Of a DNA stretch of 61,461 nt, positions 4,260 through 44,846 are shown one piece after another. The notes beneath the pieces are model-generated. The model was not told where the DNA came from. It made no database searches and saw only the letters and a list, made by a program, of their open reading frames with translations. The number at the start of each line of letters is the position of its first letter. Position 1 is the first letter of the stretch. The stretch comes from Candidatus Methylomirabilales bacterium (GTDB lineage Bacteria; Methylomirabilota; Methylomirabilia; Methylomirabilales; CSP1-5), in NCBI GenBank assembly GCA_046758505.1, contig JBHIAH010000009.1, positions 1-61,461 of the forward strand. Reading direction: 5' to 3'. The position numbers and the translations under genes are program-made.

Positions 4260-5276
4260 TTGCACGCAGTCAAGACTGGGTTTGTGCACCCCGTGGCGTG
4301 CGGTCATGAACATGGTTCAAAAGAGGTGTTTCTGGTGCGGACGTTGAGGCCGGCGATCTTGCCCGACAACAAGACGCTGGTCGTATATCCGGTCGTAATC
4401 GGGCTGGGGGTGGCCGGCGTGGGGATAGCCATTCGCAATCCGGTCATGAGCGCCCTGCCTCTCATCATCCTGGCGGTCTTTCCCGGTCTGCCCATCCTGT
4501 TCCACGCCGTCTACCACTTCTTCGTGAAGTTTCAGGTTCTGGGAGATCGGCTCGCCGCGATCGACTACGTCTCGGACCCCTTCGTTAATTCGCGCGGGCG
4601 CCAGGAAATCCACTTCGGAGACATCGCCTATTGCTTCTATGTGGACAAGGAAGCGAATCTCCTGCTCAACCTGCTGAAACAATTGAAGCGCCATAACGTG
4701 CCCGAGATCGAGAGGGATTTTCGGAGAGAGCATCTCTTGGCGAGATATCGGGTTCCTGAGGCTGTTCTCGATGACTTTGTGCAGAGCTCACAGAAGGCAT
4801 TGAACGATGTGACCACCACGGGGGTGATTCTTGAAGTCGAGGAGGTGTGCAGGCGGAATCACGTTCCGAAGAAAGTGCGGAAAGAGATTTGCAAGGCGTT
4901 GGAAACCGATCCGGCACTGCACTTCGAGTCCGTGCAAGAAACACTGAGTCCGTATCCCGTCGACCCGAAAGATCTGGACCGGATCCGGGATAAATTCTCG
5001 AGCCTGGATGCCCCGGTGCTGTCCCCCTTTCTGATGACCAAGATCAACCTGAAAAAGCTCCGGAAGATCGATGAATCTCGCCACTGGCAGGCGGCGGTCA
5101 AGAGTCGGGCCGGGGTGGTCCTGTCGAACACGGATGGGACGAGGAAGGTGTACCTGATGCGCTTCCGCGATTTGAGCCGCAAGGATGCCCGGGACCTCAT
5201 GGCCACGGTCCGTGACCGAACTCCAGGCATAAAGTTCCTGATGACGCGCAAGGAGCTCCACGCCCTCCTGAAGTAG
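4260..5276 (+). CDS. Hypothetical membrane protein (two TM helices, possible split PH-like domain)
   Basis: 338-aa ORF with protein-like composition; start uncertain. Confidence 0.65.
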   Translation: MHAVKTGFVHPVACGHEHGSKEVFLVRTLRPAILPDNKTLVVYPVVIGLGVAGVGIAIRNPVMSALPLIILAVFPGLPILFHAVYHFFVKFQVLGDRLAAIDYVSDPFVNSRGRQEIHFGDIAYCFYVDKEANLLLNLLKQLKRHNVPEIERDFRREHLLARYRVPEAVLDDFVQSSQKALNDVTTTGVILEVEEVCRRNHVPKKVRKEICKALETDPALHFESVQETLSPYPVDPKDLDRIRDKFSSLDAPVLSPFLMTKINLKKLRKIDESRHWQAAVKSRAGVVLSNTDGTRKVYLMRFRDLSRKDARDLMATVRDRTPGIKFLMTRKELHALLK

Positions 5277-5333
5277 CCTTCACATTTCAAGGAATGGCTC
5301 CAGAACCGCCTAAACTACAGGAGCTTTAGAACT

Positions 5334-5883
5334 ATGAGAAGCCAGAAAGCCCTCGCGCAAACAATACTCGTAATTTGGGGGGCCTTGGTTCTCGCTAGGG
5401 GAGTTTCTGGCGGACCACGTTTTTCTGGGCAGGGAACCAAGACGGATCTGGCCGACCAGGCTGCTACTGCCTGGAAAAAATTCCTTGGGCAGCGGAGCGC
5501 GGAACTGAGGCCGCAGCGTATCATACTTCGTGACTCCTTATTTGGCAGTCTTGATGGTAGCGCTCAGCACGGTGTGGGCGTCTGGTACAAGATGGACGAA
5601 GTCGATTACGTTGAGGGGGCATTAGTTGAGGTGTATCAAATAGAACCAAGGACAGCTAACACTCAGGACGTAAAGAAAATTAGTGAGTTACGTTTTGACC
5701 ATGTGCGCGCCTTTTTTGACAAGTTGAATGGACGGGACATAAATGGCGATGGCTTGAAGGAGCTTGTCTTCATACTGGACTCGGAGGCAGCCTGCTGGAC
5801 CTGTTGGCACATAGAACTCTATCACCTTCGGGATGGACGACTCGAGGAGTTGCCCCTTGACGTCGCTGACAGAGGGATCAAGA
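5334..5883 (+). pseudogene. Secreted protein with DxNGDGxxE Ca-binding/FG-GAP-like motif, truncated by transposase insertion
   Basis: Signal-peptide-like N-terminus, DINGDGLKELV, lower GC; the frame runs into the inverted repeat at 5884 and then reads antisense transposase sequence. Confidence 0.65.
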
Positions 5884-7075: not shown

Positions 7076-8311
7076 ATGATTGCGGTGGAGGAAGCCCAGC
7101 GGATTATTCTCGATTCGGTCGAGAAGGTCGGCTGGGAGTATGTGGAGATCCTGGATGCCTTGGGTCGGGTCCTGGCCGAGGATATCAGTGCGCCGGAGCG
7201 CATCCCTCTGTTGGACAACTCTGCGATGGACGGATACGCCCTCCGGGCGGAGGACACGCGTGGGGCGAATCCGGAGCGGCCCGTCGCATTGCACCTGATC
7301 GGAACCGTCGGGGCGGGCCAGATGTTTGACGGCCTCCTCGACAAAGGACAGGCCCTTCGAATCATGACCGGTGCGCCGATGCCTCGGGGTGCCGATGCGG
7401 TCATTCGCCAGGAGGATACCCAGGCGTCCGATCGGGGCGTCTCCATCCATCGGGAGGTCAGTCCCGGAAAGAATGTTCGGTACGCGGGTGAGGATGTCAA
7501 GGCGGGGGAACAGGTTTTGCCCGCGGGAACGATCTGTCGGCCCGGGGTCATTGGACTCTTGGCCGCCCTGGGGAGGCGGCGGGCGGCGGTGTACCAACGT
7601 CCCCGAGCGGCCATCTTGGCCACCGGCGACGAGCTGCTCCGGTGGGACGAGGCCCCGACCCCCGGCAAGATTCATAACAGCAATAGTTACGCCTTGGCGG
7701 CTCAGGTGCTTCAAGCGGGGGGGGTGCCGCTCCTTGTGGGGCCGGTGGCCGATACGAAGGACCTGCTGGCTCGGCGCCTTCGGGAAGGGGCCGGGGCGGA
7801 TCTGCTGTTGACCTCGGGAGGAGTCTCGGTGGGGGACTACGACCTCGTGGCCGAGACGCTCCGGGAGCTGGGGGCGGCGGTGCAGGTCCGGGAGGTCAAC
7901 ATGCGGCCGGGCAAGCCCTTTACTTTTGCCCTCCTCGAGCACAGGCCGATCTTTGCGCTGCCGGGCAATCCCATCTCGTGCATGGTCACCTTCGAACTCT
8001 TCGTGCGGCCGGCCCTGCGAAAGATGCAGGGGCACCGGAGTGTGTTTCATCCGGAGATCACGGCCACCGCCACCCAGTCTATTCTCAATACGGATTGCCG
8101 CCCCGCCTACCTGCGCGTTGTCCTGACCCCGACCGATGCGGGATACACCGCGGGTCTCACCGGAGATCAGGGCTCGGCGATGCTTCATTCCATGGCCTGT
8201 GCTGACGCGCTCGCCTGTGTCCCGGGGGAGACCGAGATCCCGGCGGGGAAGCCGATTCGGGTTCTCCTCTTTAGCGACGAGCCGGCAGCGAGTCGCCCCG
8301 ATCCGTGGTAA
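7076..8311 (+). CDS. moeA: Molybdopterin molybdotransferase MoeA
   Basis: SAMDGYA, IMTGAPMP.GADAV, TGDEL, SGGVSVGDYD, PGKP, LPGNP. Confidence 0.96.
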   Translation: MIAVEEAQRIILDSVEKVGWEYVEILDALGRVLAEDISAPERIPLLDNSAMDGYALRAEDTRGANPERPVALHLIGTVGAGQMFDGLLDKGQALRIMTGAPMPRGADAVIRQEDTQASDRGVSIHREVSPGKNVRYAGEDVKAGEQVLPAGTICRPGVIGLLAALGRRRAAVYQRPRAAILATGDELLRWDEAPTPGKIHNSNSYALAAQVLQAGGVPLLVGPVADTKDLLARRLREGAGADLLLTSGGVSVGDYDLVAETLRELGAAVQVREVNMRPGKPFTFALLEHRPIFALPGNPISCMVTFELFVRPALRKMQGHRSVFHPEITATATQSILNTDCRPAYLRVVLTPTDAGYTAGLTGDQGSAMLHSMACADALACVPGETEIPAGKPIRVLLFSDEPAASRPDPW

Positions 8312-40036: not shown

Positions 40037-40065
40037 TTGACAGGGCGGCGGAAGTCCCCTAGAAT
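40037..40065 (+). promoter_or_regulatory. Near-consensus sigma70 promoter of the Ubl operon
   Basis: TTGACA-17-TAGAAT. Confidence 0.8.
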
Positions 40066-40106: not shown

Positions 40107-41858
40107 ATGGGTATGAGAGCGATCCCACTCTGGATGCAAGACCTCAATGAGCGGATCGAGGCAGAGACCTCAAGCCTCTTCATCCTGCACCACAATATCG
40201 CCGATTACTTTCCTCTCGGTCAGGCCTTTCTCGCCTTCCCCGCCTTTCTCGCCGACTGGCTGAGGGAGACGAGTCCCGTCATTTTCTACAATCGGTCCAC
40301 GGGCCTGCGCTTTCCCGATGAGGAGACCCAGCGCCGATTTCAGGAGGCGGCGGGTCTCGTGGTTCGTCGCGATCAGCGAGATGTGTCCTTGGAAGAGCAG
40401 CGAAGGCGGGCCTTGGTGGCATTGGGTGAGGCGACAAGTGCTGAGCCGCCCCCCCTCCCCACGCATCCCACCAAGGTTATCCCGCTCGTGGGGCAGGCCC
40501 TCCGGTCGGGGCGTCTCCGGAATGGGCGGCGGCGCGCGGTCGCTGTCCTGGAGTACGCGGAGAGTATCGCCCCGGCTGCCGATTTTTCCTGTATGAATGA
40601 GGATGATCGTACCAACCTGGTCGCCCTCCTCAGCCTCGCGACCGATCCGACGGTCCACGAGCAAGGGGGGGTGGTCCTGCTCACGGTGAGCAATCTGGCC
40701 GATCTGCACCCGGCCCTCCGGCAGCCGGGCGGTCGGGTCGAGGTGATCGAGGTCCCCCTTCCCGATGAGGCGGAGCGGCTCCAGTATATCGCGCACCTGC
40801 TGGATCAGGAGGGGGTGCGGATCGGCATGAGCGCGGAGGAGTTCGCGCGAGCGACCGCAGGACTGACCCGGCTCCATCTCGAACAGCTCTGTCGCCAGGC
40901 CAAGGCCAAGGGCGTTCCCCTGACGTTTGAAGAGATCAAGCGGCGCAAGCGGGAGATCCTGCGCCACGAGTTGTACGGGATGGTCGAGCTGGTTGAGCCG
41001 GGCTTCGCATTAGAGAGCATCGGTGGGCTCGCCGCGGTCAAACAGTTCTTCCGGGAGGTGGTCCAGGCCATTCGGGATGGGGACCTCAAGATGGTCCCCC
41101 GCGGCATTACGCTGGTGGGTCCTCCTGGGGTGGGAAAGACGGCGGTGGCCGAGGCCTTGGCAAAGGAGTGCGGCTTCAGCTTCGTCAAGATCACCAACCC
41201 CCGGGAGAAGTGGGTGGGCGCCTCGGAGCGAAACTTCTGGAAGATTCTACAGGCCCTTCGGTCGTTGACCCCGCTGGTGGTGCTGGAGGACGAGGCAGAC
41301 CAGAGCGAGCAGTCCCGGGATGAGATGAGTGGCGACTCTGGCGTGACCAACCGGCTTCGTCAGATGCGCTTTGAATTCACGGGCGACCCCACCATCCAGG
41401 GGAAGGTCCTGTGGATCCGGATCACGAACCGTCCGGACAGGCTGGATCCGGCCGAACGCCGCTCGGGCCGGTTTAGCGAGCGGATTCCTCTGCTGATGCC
41501 GGATGCGGATGAGCGGGTCGCCATCTTCACGGTCATGCCGAAGCGGTACGGCTTTGCCACCACGGCGGTCGATTTTCGGGCGATGGTGGACCTCTGCGCA
41601 CAGCGGTTCCCCGGACAGATCACGGGCGCCGACATCGAGGAGATTTCTCTCAGGGCGTACCGCCATGCCAGGGTTCGCGGGGCGACGGCAGTGGCGGAGG
41701 ACGACTACGGCTGGGCGATTGAGGATTTCATTCCCTCCCAGTCGGCGGAGTTGATCCGTCAGCAAGAGCTCATGGCAGTCGTCCACTGTTCCTCTCGTCG
41801 CTTCTTGCCCGAGCGGTACCGGGACATCGGGGTGGGGGAGATCCGGTCCCTCGGATAG
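40107..41858 (+). CDS. Classical-clade AAA+ ATPase (degenerate N-terminal module + active module)
   Basis: GPPGVGKT, pore loop EKWVG, VVLEDEAD, TNRPD, RRSGRF, GADIE. Confidence 0.92.
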   Translation: MGMRAIPLWMQDLNERIEAETSSLFILHHNIADYFPLGQAFLAFPAFLADWLRETSPVIFYNRSTGLRFPDEETQRRFQEAAGLVVRRDQRDVSLEEQRRRALVALGEATSAEPPPLPTHPTKVIPLVGQALRSGRLRNGRRRAVAVLEYAESIAPAADFSCMNEDDRTNLVALLSLATDPTVHEQGGVVLLTVSNLADLHPALRQPGGRVEVIEVPLPDEAERLQYIAHLLDQEGVRIGMSAEEFARATAGLTRLHLEQLCRQAKAKGVPLTFEEIKRRKREILRHELYGMVELVEPGFALESIGGLAAVKQFFREVVQAIRDGDLKMVPRGITLVGPPGVGKTAVAEALAKECGFSFVKITNPREKWVGASERNFWKILQALRSLTPLVVLEDEADQSEQSRDEMSGDSGVTNRLRQMRFEFTGDPTIQGKVLWIRITNRPDRLDPAERRSGRFSERIPLLMPDADERVAIFTVMPKRYGFATTAVDFRAMVDLCAQRFPGQITGADIEEISLRAYRHARVRGATAVAEDDYGWAIEDFIPSQSAELIRQQELMAVVHCSSRRFLPERYRDIGVGEIRSLG

Positions 41859-41861
41859 GGC

Positions 41862-42656
41862 GTGGAGCAGGCATCGATGGGGGAGTATATCCAGATCGAG
41901 GGAGACGTGGTTCGGCTCCTCCGGCACGGGGGCCGGGCGGGGGCGGTTGTTGACCGGGAGGTATCGCTCCGGACATTTCTTCAGGCCCTCCTCCGCGCCG
42001 CAGACGGGTCCCGCCGCCTCCCCCTTCTTCCCGTTGGGACGCGCTTCATCCTGGGCCGGGAGCCGGATCTCTTGATCGCGGTGGAGCAGCCCCCCCAGGT
42101 CCGTCACGTCACCTGGCGGCCGGGCGGGGCGCCGGGAGCGGCCCGGGATTATCCCTTGGCCTTTCCCTATATCCTCTACCTGGTGCTCTTCCACCAGGGA
42201 GCCTTCGAGGAGATGCGCATCTATTACCGCCCCGCCCCTCTCACCGCGGACAGCGATCCCCTCTACCTGTCGAACCTGTGGAATGTGTCCTCGACGGAGA
42301 CCCCCATGGCGAAGTGTCGTGCCTGTCTGCAGGGTCGGCCCCCCTTCGACGAGCTGACCCTGGCCGCCCAGGTGCGGGGCGTCATCGAGTTCTTCTGGGG
42401 GACCGGCTTCAATCGGGCGATCGACGAGAGTTGCTTCCTGCGGGCCGCAAAGCGGGATAGCCGGATTGCCACCCTGGAGGCGTGGGAGCGGGCGAGTCGG
42501 TGCGACCCCCTCTTTCCCCTCGACGTGGATTGGGAGCCGGTGGGGAAGGGTCTCAAGGAGACGGCGGAGGAGCTCATGGCCTGGCGGGGGAAACCGGCTG
42601 CGATCGAGGATGCGGCGGATCTGGCCGACCTGATCTATCGGGTTATGGAGGGGTAA
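41862..42656 (+). CDS. Prokaryotic E2-like protein (Prok-E2 family D / PRTRC protein B-like)
   Basis: PLY..L.NV....C.ACL.G followed by FFW.T.FN, as in E2-D proteins; operon context. Confidence 0.75.
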   Translation: MEQASMGEYIQIEGDVVRLLRHGGRAGAVVDREVSLRTFLQALLRAADGSRRLPLLPVGTRFILGREPDLLIAVEQPPQVRHVTWRPGGAPGAARDYPLAFPYILYLVLFHQGAFEEMRIYYRPAPLTADSDPLYLSNLWNVSSTETPMAKCRACLQGRPPFDELTLAAQVRGVIEFFWGTGFNRAIDESCFLRAAKRDSRIATLEAWERASRCDPLFPLDVDWEPVGKGLKETAEELMAWRGKPAAIEDAADLADLIYRVMEG

Positions 42657-42659
42657 GGG

Positions 42660-43328
42660 GTGTTCCCGATCTATGTGAAGGAGGCGGGATTCCGCGAGCC
42701 TGAGGAGCCGATCTACTATCTGGTGAGCCGCAGTGGGCTCTTCCAGGTCAAGCGGACCCCGGTTTTTTGCTCCACGATTCGAGTTCCGGGGCTCCTGTGG
42801 CTCGAGGAAGAGGTAGAAGGGGTGGAGTTCCTGCTTCCGGTCATCCCGGCGAAAATCCTGGGGGAAAGCATGGCCTTCTTCCGCGAGGTCTTTCGCAAGT
42901 ACCGCGCCGAGGCTGCCGTCCTCCTCTATCGCAGGGAGGCGGCGGGGGAGTACGAAATTCGCATTCCCCCCCAGCAGGTGGCGGGAGGTCATTGCCGGTA
43001 TGAGGTCGGTCCCAATCCCCCCGGCTGTCTCCGGGTGGGGACCATGCACAGCCACGGGGCAGCCGAAGCCTTTCATTCGGAACTCGATGATGTCGACGAG
43101 CAGTACGATGACGGGCTCCATGTGACCATCGGGTCTATCCACGCCAAACCCACCGTCTCCTGTTCCCTCGTCGTGGACGGCCGGCGCTTCGACCTCCGGC
43201 CCGAGGCGGTGCTCGAGGTGATGCCCTGGCAGCTGGAACCGACGATCCGGCTCGAGGATTCGGAACGGGTGACCGCCGAGCCGCCGCCCGGGGATTCGGA
43301 TCCGAGCGGCCGGCCCTCCGCCATCTAA
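42660..43328 (+). CDS. JAB/JAMM (MPN+) metallopeptidase
   Basis: Upstream Glu (RAEAAV) and HSH-x7-S-x2-D (HSHGAAEAFHSELD); DGLHVTIG. Confidence 0.9.
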   Translation: MFPIYVKEAGFREPEEPIYYLVSRSGLFQVKRTPVFCSTIRVPGLLWLEEEVEGVEFLLPVIPAKILGESMAFFREVFRKYRAEAAVLLYRREAAGEYEIRIPPQQVAGGHCRYEVGPNPPGCLRVGTMHSHGAAEAFHSELDDVDEQYDDGLHVTIGSIHAKPTVSCSLVVDGRRFDLRPEAVLEVMPWQLEPTIRLEDSERVTAEPPPGDSDPSGRPSAI

Positions 43329-43331
43329 CCA

Positions 43332-43410
43332 AGCAGTCGGCAGTCAGCAATCAGCTATCCGCACTCAGATGCTGAAAAAGCTGACCGCTGACGGCTGGGA
43401 GCTGACAGCT
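43332..43410. repeat. Heptamer-repeat hairpin (TCAGC.. / GCTGA..)
   Basis: agcagtc ggcagtc agcaatc agctatc ... gctgacc gctgacg gctggga gctgaca. Confidence 0.75.
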
Positions 43411-44094
43411 ATGCGTGAAATCAAGGTGATTGGCATTGGCGGGATTGGCTGTGCCCTGCTCCCGTTCCTGGCCCGGTATCTGAATTATCGGGGGGAGCGG
43501 GCCCGCGTCACCCTCATTGACGGGGATGAGTTCGAGCGGGCCAATGCGGACCGGCAGGCCTTTGGGACGCTGGGGAATAAGGCGAAGGTCACGGCTGCCG
43601 AAATGGCCAGACAGTTTCAGCGCCTCTCCTTCCGGGCCATCCCCGAATATATCACCGAGGCGAACATTGGCCAGTTCATCCAGGGGGGGGACATGATTTT
43701 TCTGGCGGTGGATAATCACAAGACGCGGAAGCTGGTGAGTGATTACTGCGAAAAACTGGCAACGGTGACGTTGATTTCCGGGGGGAATGATTTCACCGAC
43801 GGAAATGTTCAGGTCCATATTCGAGAGGGAGGTAAGGACCGGACCGCGCCGATCACGCAGTTTCATCCCGAGATCCGGAACCCCCGCGATCGCTCGCCTG
43901 CGGAGATGTCGTGTGAGGAGCTGATGGAGCGCGGAGCGCCCCAGCTCTTGTTTACGAATCTCGCTGTTGCGTCCGCCATGCTCAATGCCTTCTATGGCGT
44001 CCGCGAAGGGAAGCTGCGGTACGGCGAGGTCTACCTCGATATTGTCGAGGGCAAGAGTAACCCAGTCAAGCGCCAGGGAGAGGGAACGCAATGA
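43411..44094 (+). CDS. ThiF/E1-like Ubl-activating enzyme
   Basis: GIGGIG, DGDEFE..N..RQ, NKA, AVDNHKTR, SCEE...QLLFTN (candidate catalytic Cys). Confidence 0.92.
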   Translation: MREIKVIGIGGIGCALLPFLARYLNYRGERARVTLIDGDEFERANADRQAFGTLGNKAKVTAAEMARQFQRLSFRAIPEYITEANIGQFIQGGDMIFLAVDNHKTRKLVSDYCEKLATVTLISGGNDFTDGNVQVHIREGGKDRTAPITQFHPEIRNPRDRSPAEMSCEELMERGAPQLLFTNLAVASAMLNAFYGVREGKLRYGEVYLDIVEGKSNPVKRQGEGTQ

Positions 44095-44405
44095 CCGAAC
44101 CACTCAAGCAGGCGACGCGGGTTCGTGCGGGGTCCCCCACGCAGGCGCAGGAGCCGGTGCGGGTCATCTATGGGGTCCACTCGCTCGAGGTGAACATCGC
44201 GGGGCGAAGCGTGGGAGACGTCCGTGCCGCGTTGCGGCAGGCTTTGAACATCGGCCCCCAGGCGGTCGCGGTGGTCGGGGGCCGGGAGGTCGTGGAGAGC
44301 TACCTCCTGCAGGCCGGTGAGGTTTTGGAGTTTGTCCGACTGGCTGGCGAGAAGGGCGTGGGAGATCTGTGGCCGGGCCCTGGCGGTTCTGGCCGGGCCC
44401 GGTAG
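44091..44405 (+). CDS. Ubiquitin-like beta-grasp protein ending ...LEFVRLAGEKG plus a 15-aa tail
   Basis: Beta-grasp pattern (G.SV..VR..L...LNI...A.V.G......L..GE.LEF); ATG overlaps the E1 stop. Confidence 0.8.
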   Translation: MTEPLKQATRVRAGSPTQAQEPVRVIYGVHSLEVNIAGRSVGDVRAALRQALNIGPQAVAVVGGREVVESYLLQAGEVLEFVRLAGEKGVGDLWPGPGGSGRAR

Positions 44406-44480
44406 GCGAGCCGTCCCTCGGCGCCGGACTGGGGGTGGGTTCCTGGAGCGGTCGCTCCTGATGACGGCGGAGGCGGATGG

Positions 44481-44846
44481 GTGAGGAAAGAGGGAGACGA
44501 TCGGCGGAAGTTGCCCCGATTCCGGATTATCAGCGTCGGGGGCTCCATCACAACACCGGTAGAGGCGGACGTCCTGAACCTGAGCATGGGTGGGGCACTG
44601 GTCGAGCACCAGGGTACGTTGCGTGTCGGATCCGAGTGTACCCTGAACGTTCCCCTGGCTGGCGCCCCGGTGAATATCAGGTGCCACGTGGCCCACAGTA
44701 CCGTCGACCACCGGGCGACCGGACCTGCGGGGGAGGGTCTGCTTTTTTACCGCACGGGCCTGGAGTTTCTCGAGCTTTCTCGAGAGGCCAAGGAAATCCT
44801 GGCGACGCTGATCCGCTCTTACGGCGAGGGGGGAGAGGGGGGATAA
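44481..44846 (+). CDS. PilZ domain protein
   Basis: RRKLPR (RxxxR) and NLSMGG (D/NxSxxG), GLEF. Confidence 0.85.
   Translation: MRKEGDDRRKLPRFRIISVGGSITTPVEADVLNLSMGGALVEHQGTLRVGSECTLNVPLAGAPVNIRCHVAHSTVDHRATGPAGEGLLFYRTGLEFLELSREAKEILATLIRSYGEGGEGG

Follow-up and report, generated by a model that had tools for sequence, protein, structure and literature searches.

Eukaryotic and Caldiarchaeum ubiquitin precursors come as poly-Ubl genes with short C-terminal caps or as Ubl fusions, and a JAMM/Rpn11-type or other DUB trims them before E1 activation. JAB peptidases also mature sulfur carriers, as in the QbsE/QbsD and CysO/Mec pairs. For the bacterial Bil system, published work describes cleavage of BilA by BilC that exposes its Gly, deconjugation by the same enzyme, and an E1-E2 thioester relay (10.1101/2023.09.26.559546). 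For type I Bub, published work describes cleavage of BubAB by BubCD after Gly229, and an oxyester route because Bub E1 and E2 lack a catalytic Cys (PMC11601596). Iyer, Burroughs and Aravind (2006) described the core of the PRTRC cassette (NCBIfam PRTRC_A/B/C/ThiF) as operon class 6d, in which the E2 has a His that is absolutely conserved and lies on the C-terminal side of the conserved Cys, and in which an alpha-helical protein accompanies the other genes (PMC1779556). We found no published description of the operon system studied here or of the viral cassettes related to it, in a search that left subscription journals and preprint supplements mostly outside; Table S1 of the Bub preprint, for example, could list related operons.

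Operon genes and their relation to PRTRC

The window, i.e. the whole stretch of DNA that was analysed, is 61,461 nucleotides long, and all coordinates refer to it. A sigma-70-like promoter candidate (40037..40065, + strand; TTGACA-17-TAGAAT, 11/12) lies just 5' of the operon; it is a consensus match only, and the region holds six such sites vs. 0.6 expected from shuffles. The first gene (40107..41858, +) encodes a 583-residue AAA ATPase, the canonical AAA module of which spans residues about 298-540 and is Cdc48/PAN/FtsH-like. It matches Pfam AAA at 3.3e-26 and NCBIfam CDC48 at 2e-38, the latter far under the cut-off of that model. The N-terminal half is degenerate and AAA-like, and matches CDC48 at 2.5e-7.

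The second gene (41862..42656, +) encodes an E2-like protein of 264 residues, the true start of which may be Met6. No Pfam or NCBIfam model matched it, and 26 of its 30 Atlas feature matches fall in Prok-E2_D clusters, the best at 0.97. The AF2 model has a pLDDT of 75.2. In the wide VIA-align search, 27 of the top 28 rows have the UBC fold (E2 enzymes, one of them the E2-variant FTS) with middling Z-scores of 6.2-4.3, and 9eav is among the matches; the best Foldseek match is UbcH7 (E 0.068). Cys155 is invariant in a 21-row alignment (A3), and so are Asn141, 14 residues upstream, and Arg153. The JAB/JAMM metallopeptidase (42660..43328, +; 222 residues), a predicted processing and deconjugating enzyme, matches Pfam Prok-JAB at 5.2e-6 and NCBIfam PRTRC_A at 4.6e-8. 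Its JAMM motif, E ... HxH-x7-S-xx-D, has Glu84, His130-Ser131-His132, Ser140, and Asp143 invariant in a 21-row alignment (A5). The E1-like, ThiF-family adenylyltransferase (43369..44094, +; 241 residues) matches Pfam ThiF at 9.4e-19 and NCBIfam PRTRC_ThiF at 1.2e-14; its GxGGxxG motif, Asp51, Arg62, Lys71, Asp115, and single Cys182 are all invariant in a 15-row alignment. Judged by these alignments, the catalytic motifs of JAB, E1, and E2 are intact. The E1 stop codon overlaps the start codon of the Ubl gene (ATGA at 44091-44094). The first-pass annotation took the JAB gene to be adjacent to the Ubl gene; the two do share an operon, with the E1 gene between them. Neither a RING E3 nor a 20S proteasome gene was seen, PF00227 being represented in the genome by a single 192-residue open frame.

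This operon resembles PRTRC in having Ubl, JAB, E1, and E2-like genes together, in the gene order B (E2)-A (JAB)-ThiF, and in the best NCBIfam matches of JAB (PRTRC_A) and E1 (PRTRC_ThiF). The Ubl ends in KG, as do five of five sampled PRTRC protein C sequences, which are annotated genes from plasmids. The first-pass annotation gave the ending of protein C as G.KG; among the five, KG is general, the full G-x-K-G occurs in three, and none has a tail, unlike the Ubl here. A Deinococcus PRTRC_C query for more such termini gave only two proteins. The scores, however, separate the two systems. JAB reaches 32.8 bits against the PRTRC_A cut-off of 101.8, and E1 54.2 bits against the PRTRC_ThiF cut-off of 144.75. 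The Ubl has no HMM match to PRTRC_C or Pfam Prok_Ub even at E 10, and the genome has no Prok_Ub match. Comparison by hhalign showed no significant similarity between the Ubl family and three PRTRC_C sequences (E 0.15) or between the E2 family and one PRTRC_B (E 0.12). The sole PRTRC ParB match in the genome lies on another contig and scores 112.7 bits (cut-off 278.6), a level that generic ParB genes of control genomes also reach. The system here is also chromosomal rather than plasmid-borne, and has the AAA ATPase in addition. Membership in PRTRC (TIGR03734-03741) was rejected by score. As for class 6d, the Ubl, JAB, E1-like, and E2-like genes that define it (PMC1779556) are found together here, but the 21-row E2 alignment contains no invariant His, and alpha-hel2 matched none of the operon proteins.

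The Ubl and its C-terminus

The Ubl gene (44091..44405, +; stop codon TAG at 44403-44405) encodes 104 residues. Its AlphaFold2 model, built on a 47-row alignment with a mean pLDDT of 75.9, is a beta-grasp fold with strands at residues 23-27, 30-34, 59-62, 65-67, and 78-82 and a helix at residues 41-52. A disordered N-terminal arm (residues 1-22; 44091..44156, +) precedes the beta-grasp core (residues 23-82; 44157..44336, +). The core is followed by RLAGEKG (residues 83-89; 44337..44357, +), a flexible C-terminal strand leading to Gly89 (codon 44355-44357), the predicted reactive residue. Residues 90-104, VGDLWPGPGGSGRAR (44358..44402, +), form an unconserved tail that is predicted to be removed. 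The pLDDT falls below 50 at residues 4-18 and 91-94, consistent with the arm and the tail, and the arm is missing in many of the wider relatives. Foldseek gives NEDD8, TtuB, ubiquitin, and Caldiarchaeum ubiquitin as the best PDB matches (E about 2e-3 to 5e-3, prob 1.00, TM to target 0.51-0.66), with 6fnn and 6fj7 also among the matches. The protein thus has the beta-grasp and the flexible C-terminal strand to a Gly that characterize the modifier class. The beta-grasp pattern ending at LEFVRLAGEKG and the arm of about 20 residues, both read from the letters in the first-pass annotation, agree with the model.

We then asked how far the C-terminus is shared. GEKG occurs in 57 of 59 close homologues from the protein collection; 14 of these 57 stop there, and the other 43 have tails of 1-73 residues without alignable conservation. 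In a set with a single genome for each species, GEKG is present at 67 of 70 loci, and among the 66 complete ORFs seven stop at this motif while 59 continue for 1-132 residues (median 8). LEFVRLAGEKG is common to Methylomirabilota and Desulfobaccales-type genomes despite an overall identity of only about 51-56%. Past the Gly codon, the DNA of close relatives diverges immediately and runs into whatever is downstream. A tail start of xGxLW is common to close relatives, which may reflect recent common descent or weak constraint. RNA folding of 44340-44480, covering the tail and the intergenic segment, shows nothing beyond composition (z = +1.37), and no terminator-like site was found between the Ubl and PilZ genes. 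The alignment of homologues suggested in the first-pass annotation thus finds conservation stopping at GEKG and some proteins ending there, and supports Gly89 as the likely functional C-terminus.

That the tail is an artefact of sequencing or assembly, or of a recently lost stop codon, with the true protein ending at Gly89, is scarcely credible. Two close relatives (L007 and L008) do have a stop directly after the Gly codon. However, contigs from four per-run assemblies match the window exactly over 44000-44600 at a depth of 20-35 (all four runs belong to one study and may represent the source samples, so that they are not independent), and most relatives have a tail. The artefact reading is thereby largely refuted, and so is the possibility, weighed at the outset, that all homologues stop at GEKG. 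The 15 residues are real; first described as low-complexity, they do not strictly fit that term, being rich in Gly and Pro and predicted to be disordered.

A profile search places the Ubl in a wider family of 1721 representative clusters (E<=1e-3) with a G-x-K-G end. Of 146 relatives inspected, 128 have xGx[KR]G. Tails are lacking in 32 wider relatives, and measure 1-5 residues in 35, 6-20 in 25, 21-60 in 20, and more than 60 in 16. Pfam found nothing informative in the long tails of L053, L021, and L042 or in the neighbours of L053. At least eleven genes contain two to four head-to-tail Ubl repeats fused directly at G-x-K-G, several of these tandem genes being capped by 1-8 residues, and Ubl fusions also occur. 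Repeats joined in this way would be workable only if something cuts after G-x-K-G. Among relatives on viral contigs, which are A+T-richer, 29 of 38 stop exactly at G-x-K-G and four have a single Cys cap, consistent with tails arising as read-through. Overall, the tail appears to be read-through that G+C-rich genomes tolerate, and not a regulatory pro-peptide. A stop directly after the Gly is somewhat commoner (7/66) than the roughly 2-5% estimated for random G+C-rich sequence, and weak selection may therefore act against tails.

The Ubl could alternatively be a ThiS/MoaD-type thiocarboxylate carrier matured by JAB, with an E1 that only adenylates. This would suit the short ThiF/MoeB-type E1, the presence of TtuB among the best fold matches, and the weak Pfam ThiS matches of wider relatives (e.g. 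P0076, 67.8 bits). The operon, however, contains an AAA ATPase and an E2-like protein with an invariant Cys, and Pfam and NCBIfam identify in it no sulfurtransferase, rhodanese, or biosynthetic gene. The Ubl itself ends in KG instead of GG and has no Pfam match at E 10, and the poly-Ubl genes and Ubl fusions fit a modifier better. We regard a sulfur carrier as very unlikely.

Proposed trimming by JAB and subsequent pathway

Modelling of JAB with zinc and the Ubl gave complex scores of 0.81, 0.82, and 0.81, whereas the best control scored 0.00. The mark used is reached by 116 of 157 solved complexes and by 2 of 215 mismatched pairs, a calibration that does not extend to the custom alignments and the zinc ion used here. 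At least 74% of contacts recur between runs, and the partner has a pLDDT of 76 or more. In the model, the interface comprises JAB residues 84, 130, 132, 140-143, and 109-119, and Ubl residues 82-92, 52-56, and 26-31. Ubl residues 82-92 sit on JAB residues 84, 130, 132, and 140-143, and Ubl residues 83-89 touch JAB residues 113-118 as well as the active site. The model may pass through likeness to solved JAB-ubiquitin complexes, such as 6fnn and 9eav.

The first-pass annotation saw in the protein a pro-Ubl that JAB cuts after Gly89, and in the cut a proteolytic on-switch. The cut itself is in keeping with the end of conservation, the G-x-K-G repeat junctions, the JAMM motif, and the complex model. 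In such a switch, the tail would serve as a pro-peptide that holds the Ubl inactive, to be removed only once JAB has been activated, and cleavage would control the pathway. The high share of tailed proteins is what such a device would predict, as are the co-transcription of JAB and Ubl, a scissile bond that the complex model puts at the JAMM site, and the xGxLW tail start of close relatives. On the other hand, tails range from 0 to 132 residues with no conserved length or sequence, they are missing in 14/57, 7/66, and 29/38 relatives in the three samples, and the DNA beyond Gly89 diverges like intergenic DNA. Moreover, JAB being in the same operon, enzyme and substrate are made together. Given how much tails vary in sequence and length, and how often they are lacking, the switch reading fails in our view, and we consider it unlikely.

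We instead favour, as the probable course, a precursor Ubl whose non-functional tail is trimmed by JAB to Gly89, followed by a relay from E1 to E2 to lysine, with the AAA ATPase acting on the Ubl or its conjugates. The gene product would be the precursor of a ubiquitin-like modifier with Gly89 as its working C-terminus, and residues 90-104 would be a non-functional extension. This extension would exist because no stop directly follows Gly89 in a 63% G+C genome, and would be tolerated because the JAMM metalloprotease of the operon, presumably required anyway for removing the Ubl from targets, also cuts after Gly89. From the conservation pattern and the complex model we infer that JAB cleaves the peptide bond after Gly89 and releases residues 90-104. 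The trimmed Ubl would be adenylated by the ThiF-type E1, moved to Cys182 of E1, and handed on to the E2-like protein at Cys155 before reaching target lysines; the invariance of the two Cys residues points to such a thioester relay and to conjugation. The Cdc48-like ATPase, encoded first in the operon, would work on the Ubl or its conjugates.

The AAA-Ubl linkage is seen in two distinct gene arrangements, and an AAA gene lies near the Ubl gene in 15 of 29 loci whose E1 and JAB genes are elsewhere. In L061, two ORFs adjoining the Ubl gene (5063-5752 and 7088-7762) were considered as E1 and JAB and found unrelated, the true E1 and JAB genes being elsewhere in that genome. The 15 loci would suit a Ubl that retains its tail and acts unconjugated, for instance by serving the AAA ATPase as a non-covalent adaptor. 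Against this, the terminal G-x-K-G is invariant, the genomes that hold the Ubl keep the E1, E2, and JAB genes, and poly-Ubl architecture occurs, which together make an unconjugated Ubl highly improbable, and we retain the conjugation reading.

Comparison with viral cassettes, Bil, Bub, and ubiquitin

By sequence, the system here is closest to E2-JAB-E1-Ubl cassettes of the same gene order that occur on large viral contigs in IMG/VR. Among 38 viral loci, E1 is present in 35 (33-52% identity), JAB in 36, and the E2-like protein in 27; none has the AAA ATPase. Their Ubls end in G-x-K-G, mostly in the mature form (29/38), and sometimes have extra N-terminal domains. The E2 and JAB proteins are longer, with 877 and 398 residues in L093. 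The viral E2 relatives were matched by tblastn at 1e-9 to 1e-19, and one of them matches Prok-E2_D at E 0.002. A narrow Ubl profile (A2) had no match in the viral contigs, whereas a wider one (A6) matched. Against 50,697 phage records, tblastn gave no match for the E2-like protein and nine weak matches only for E1. One of these is from a Bacillus jumbo phage, where the ThiF protein adjoins a weak JAB-like protein in no clear cassette, and was set aside.

PADLOC returned weak IetA/TRIP13 matches for the AAA ATPase and weak E1-E2/BilD matches for E1, the BilD match (E 9.6e-4) covering residues 15-126 only; Ubl, E2, and JAB had no match. The likeness to Bil is a JAB peptidase that pre-processes its Ubl to a C-terminal Gly, as proposed here. 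In Bil (10.1101/2023.09.26.559546), however, BilD is a large IAD-AAD-CYS E1, while E1 here is a single module of 241 residues; Bil is an anti-phage system described there without an AAA ATPase; and BilA of E. aridi has one extra residue, not 15. Type I Bub is alike in that a JAB domain cuts a Ubl fusion precursor directly after a conserved Gly. It differs (PMC11601596) in having a DUF6527 serine protease, which has no match here, and a Ubl fused to E2. In addition, E1 and E2 here each keep an invariant Cys. With trimming of pro-Ubls by JAB already established for Bil and Bub in these sources, the mechanism that we propose is not new. What is new is a large unnamed beta-grasp modifier family defined by its G-x-K-G terminus, including polyubiquitin-like tandem genes and Ubl fusions. 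Some of its members are encoded on large viral contigs; others are chromosomal, in methane-cycle and sulfate-reducer lineages, where a Cdc48-like ATPase accompanies them.

The family shares poly-Ubl genes with short caps, Ubl fusions, and predicted trimming before E1 activation with the ubiquitin precursors. In contrast to these, the terminus here is G-x-K-G rather than R-G-G and the host is bacterial or phage. The KG end would have a practical consequence, as trypsin, cutting after Lys88, would leave modified lysines with one Gly (+57 Da) instead of GG. Such conjugates would therefore escape standard searches of existing metaproteomes, yet be easy to seek.

As a tentative, rather doubtful extension, a phage-type E2-JAB-E1-Ubl cassette may have been domesticated in free-living bacteria, namely one Methylomirabilota genus and Desulfobaccales-type lineages, and coupled to the Cdc48-like AAA ATPase as a bacterial ubiquitin-plus-unfoldase pathway. 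The JAB-matured Ubl would tag proteins via Gly89, and the AAA ring would engage the 22-residue arm or the whole tag and unfold or extract the tagged protein. If functional, the AAA link would represent a third independent tag-and-unfold system in prokaryotes, and the pathway, if real, would be an analogue of ubiquitin-Cdc48 or Pup-Mpa assembled from other components.

The Ubl and the end of its conservation

The ubiquitin-like protein (Ubl) is encoded by a 104-residue ORF on the forward strand (44091–44405), whose start ATG overlaps the stop of the E1 gene (ATGA). Its AlphaFold2 model, based on a 47-row alignment, has a mean pLDDT of 75.9 and a pTM of 0.60, and shows a beta-grasp composed of strands 23–27, 30–34, 59–62, 65–67, and 78–82 and a helix at residues 41–52. 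The N-terminal arm is predicted to be disordered, with pLDDT below 50 at residues 4–18, and so is the tail. The best PDB matches to the model in Foldseek are NEDD8, the sulfur carrier TtuB, ubiquitin, and Caldiarchaeum ubiquitin, at E values of about 2e-3 to 5e-3 (none at 1e-3), with a probability of 1.00 and TM to target of 0.51–0.66. Pfam, NCBIfam, and PADLOC give zero matches to the Ubl, even at E 10. The codon of Gly89 lies at 44355–44357 (+), and the tail VGDLWPGPGGSGRAR (44358–44402, +) is followed directly by the stop TAG. ORF, model, and homologues bear out the first-pass annotation, which had described a beta-grasp Ubl ending in LEFVRLAGEKG at Gly89, a 15-residue tail, and an N-terminal arm of about 20 residues. 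It had also raised sequencing error as an origin of the tail. The region 44000–44600 is identical in contigs of four runs at depth 20–35, all from one study and possibly the source samples, and a sequencing or assembly error is unlikely.

Among 59 close homologues in a protein collection, which carry NC10 or Methylomirabilales source names and include the window's own protein, 57 have GEKG; of the other two, one is partial or frame-shifted and one is divergent. GEKG is the exact end in 14 of the 57, and the remaining 43 have 1–73 extra residues that cannot be aligned. A survey with one genome per species gave 70 Ubl loci, 67 of them with GEKG and 66 of those with complete ORFs. Seven complete ORFs end at GEKG and 59 are tailed by 1–132 residues, with a median of 8 as counted from the printed distribution. 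Conservation ends at GEKG and some homologues end there, as had been anticipated, and the scenario held against the proposal, that all homologues stop at GEKG, does not apply. LEFVRLAGEKG is common to genomes labelled Methylomirabilota and those labelled Desulfobaccales, Syntrophobacterales, or Thermodesulfobacteriota, with one M and two Y substitutions as the only exceptions, and the Ubls of the latter labels are otherwise about 51–56% identical to the window's. The DNA 3' of the Gly codon diverges at once, even in the closest relatives; in loci L001–L005 it enters sequence conserved for other reasons. The G+C content is 63% in the window and 75% after the Gly codon. One Desulfobaccales-type Ubl (L021:6265–6660) extends 132 residues past GEKG; in this extension lie a second GEKG and, possibly, a distinct downstream gene that is in frame with it.

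The operon and the modelled JAB–Ubl complex

A promoter-like site (40037–40065) precedes five genes that overlap or are spaced by 3 to 40 bases. The AAA ATPase (40107–41858, +) matches Pfam AAA at 3.3e-26 and, among NCBIfam models, comes closest to CDC48, PAN, and FtsH. Its N-terminal half (40107–41000) has weak similarity to the second AAA module of CDC48 (E 2.5e-7), so that in this protein a degenerate module seems to precede an active one. The next protein (264 residues; 41862–42656, +) is without family match, and a Foldseek search with it gave no significant match. We read it as an E2 on the basis of its invariant Cys155, its Prok-E2_D features, and its UBC-fold matches. Specifically, Cys155, Asn141, and Arg153 are invariant in a 21-row alignment, and 26 of 30 atlas feature matches fall in Prok-E2_D clusters (best 0.97). 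UBC-fold proteins occupy 27 of the top 28 rows of a structural search of 48,161 chains, at Z scores of 6.2–4.3 that the tool regards as middling. These rows are E2 enzymes, including bacterial CdnG-E2, plus one E2-variant (FTS); Cap2 and BubB rank 31 and 35. The JAB (42660–43328, +) has an invariant JAMM motif formed by Glu84, His130-Ser-His132, Ser140, and Asp143. Well past its catalytic domain, residues 208–222 (43281–43325) form a terminal PxDSDxxGRPSAI that is conserved in Methylomirabilota-type relatives and may be a docking tail, e.g., for the AAA ring. The ThiF-type E1 (43369–44094, +) has an invariant nucleotide-binding loop and Asp115, and a single invariant Cys182. Other genes around the operon in the window are ordinary metabolic and envelope genes. 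A PilZ-domain gene (44481–44846; Pfam 6.1e-9) lies downstream of the Ubl, as it does in L006, L010, and L011 (71–76% identity) and at no other locus. PADLOC reports no defence system in the window; a role in conflict or defence is conceivable.

The model of JAB with zinc and the full Ubl precursor scores 0.81, 0.82, and 0.81, while the highest-scoring of three controls reaches 0.00. In calibrating the tool, 116 of 157 solved complexes passed its mark, as did two of 215 mismatched pairs; this calibration does not extend to the zinc and the alignments of our own used here. The runs have at least 74% of contacts in common and a partner pLDDT of at least 76. The confident interface brings Ubl residues 82–92 (VRLAGEKG-VGD) to JAB residues 109–119 and the catalytic residues 84, 130, 132, and 140–143, and pairs the invariant LNI patch (Ubl 52–56) with JAB residues 149–152 and 172–174. 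The modelled geometry is that expected for cleavage between Gly89 and Val90. The score may owe its pass to likeness to solved JAB–ubiquitin complexes (6fnn, 9eav).

G-x-K-G junctions, viral cassettes, and the tail

Searched with a profile, a set of 1.84 billion cluster representatives yielded 1721 Ubl relatives at E≤1e-3, 661 of them at E≤1e-10. We inspected 146 representatives (the top 150 minus four that were in the set beforehand), 128 of which have the motif xGx[KR]G. After its last occurrence, 32 have no residue, 35 have 1–5, 25 have 6–20, 20 have 21–60, and 16 have more than 60. When 18 short members are aligned, one Gly, the Asn of LN(I), one Glu, and G-x-K-G prove invariant. Some members weakly match Pfam ThiS. 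At least 11 proteins (P0065, P0066, P0075, P0076, P0089, P0093, P0101, P0104, P0116, P0119, and P0144) consist of 2–4 head-to-tail Ubl repeats, each ending in EFVKxAGxKG with the next directly after it, and several are capped by 1–8 residues behind the final repeat. This is the layout of polyubiquitin, an architecture workable only with a peptidase cutting after G-x-K-G. The tandem-repeat proteins P0065, P0066, P0075, P0076, P0116, and others come from metagenome contigs, and each one looked up is the sole member of its 90% cluster. Fusions also occur. A paralogous Ubl (L053:5956–6624, L054, P0081) carries a conserved 118-residue domain, with zero Pfam matches, after LEFVRYAGEKG; it belongs to a 90% cluster of 42 proteins, mostly 210 residues long, with NC10 or Methylomirabilis names. 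A second Ubl-like match is present in four genomes of the window's genus. P0130, P0125, P0151, P0157, and P0187 have an N-terminal Ubl, a G-x-K-G junction, and a large C-terminal part, which is a GNAT acetyltransferase in P0130; others have about 280 extra residues without Pfam match, and one protein has 805 residues.

Relatives much closer than the plasmid PRTRC cassette are encoded on viral contigs from IMG/VR, which reach 527 kb. At 38 viral loci, E1 is present in 35 (33–52% identity), JAB in 36, the E2-like protein in 27, and the AAA ATPase in none, mostly in the window's gene order. The viral Ubl stops exactly at G-x-K-G in 29 of the 38, has a single Cys cap in four, and runs into another Ubl repeat in two. 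In one viral cassette (L093:963–6171), the E2-like domain makes up the N-terminal portion of an 877-residue protein, the JAB protein has 398 residues, and the Ubl has N-terminal Rho_N/SAP-like domains and ends in GSKG plus one Cys.

In the 14 cellular operon-type loci, defined by an E1 gene immediately 5' of Ubl and upstream sequence available for 4.3 kb or more, JAB is found in 14, AAA in 13, and E2 in 12. Where the operon lacks E2, it was found elsewhere in three of four genomes searched (one unpublished). One genome whose operon lacks E2 has two tandem copies on another contig (L089 and L091; G004:C14:6341–8368). In Desulfobaccales-type genomes the Ubl stands separate, and E1 and JAB (60–63% and 44–49% identical to the window's) are paired, about 2 Mb off in a complete chromosome. 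An AAA gene lies 3–4.8 kb upstream of Ubl on the opposite strand in 15 of these 29 loci, accompanied by E2 where the sequence reaches far enough. Hence, the AAA–Ubl link is kept across two gene arrangements. The Ubl occurs in 27 of 151 genomes searched of the phylum (two of these unpublished): 11/11 in its own genus, 7/18 in a second, where several 99–100% complete genomes lack it, 4/10 in a third, and 0/90 in the largest family. This patchiness indicates that the system is accessory rather than core.

The Ubl appears to be a pro-Ubl with Gly89 as its reactive end. The first-pass annotation had JAB cutting it after Gly89 as a proteolytic on-switch. Cleavage there by the operon's JAB is likely, and this part of the proposal is supported; the regulatory part is unsupported. 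A switch would have tail cleavage control the Ubl, but the tail is conserved in neither length nor sequence and is absent from a minority of close relatives, and the poly-Ubl and fusion genes point to cutting after G-x-K-G as a probable general property of the family. With both, a switch becomes quite improbable. The preferred reading of the tail is tolerated read-through, given its lack of conservation, its absence in that minority, and its being the majority state in cellular relatives while mostly missing on viral contigs. JAB, needed anyway for deconjugation by a conjugation system, would also remove such a tail.

Comparison with known systems

The best NCBIfam matches of JAB and E1 are PRTRC_A and PRTRC_ThiF, both far under cut-off. 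On plasmids, the PRTRC genes are arranged as C ... B(E2)-A(JAB)-ThiF, with B being Prok-E2_D, A being DUF2016+Prok-JAB, and C being Prok_Ub. Protein C ends in KG with zero tail in five of five annotated genes (VKTKG twice, VGQKG, and LGTKG twice), so the protein C-type ending given in the first-pass annotation holds in this sample. The window's system does not count as a PRTRC member: searches of the genome gave no ParB above cut-off and zero Prok_Ub matches, profile–profile similarity of the window's proteins to PRTRC is not significant, and the E2-like protein lacks in the 21-row alignment the conserved His C-terminal to Cys that Iyer et al. (PMC1779556) ascribe to class 6d E2s. JAB pre-processing of bacterial Ubls was proposed in that 2006 paper and has been demonstrated for BilC/BilA (10.1101/2023.09.26.559546) and BubCD/BubAB (PMC11601596); the trimming mechanism proposed here thus belongs to a known kind. 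A search of part of the literature found no description of this system. What differs here is the large unnamed family of KG-ending Ubls, the phage connection, and the Cdc48-like ATPase added in the cellular versions.
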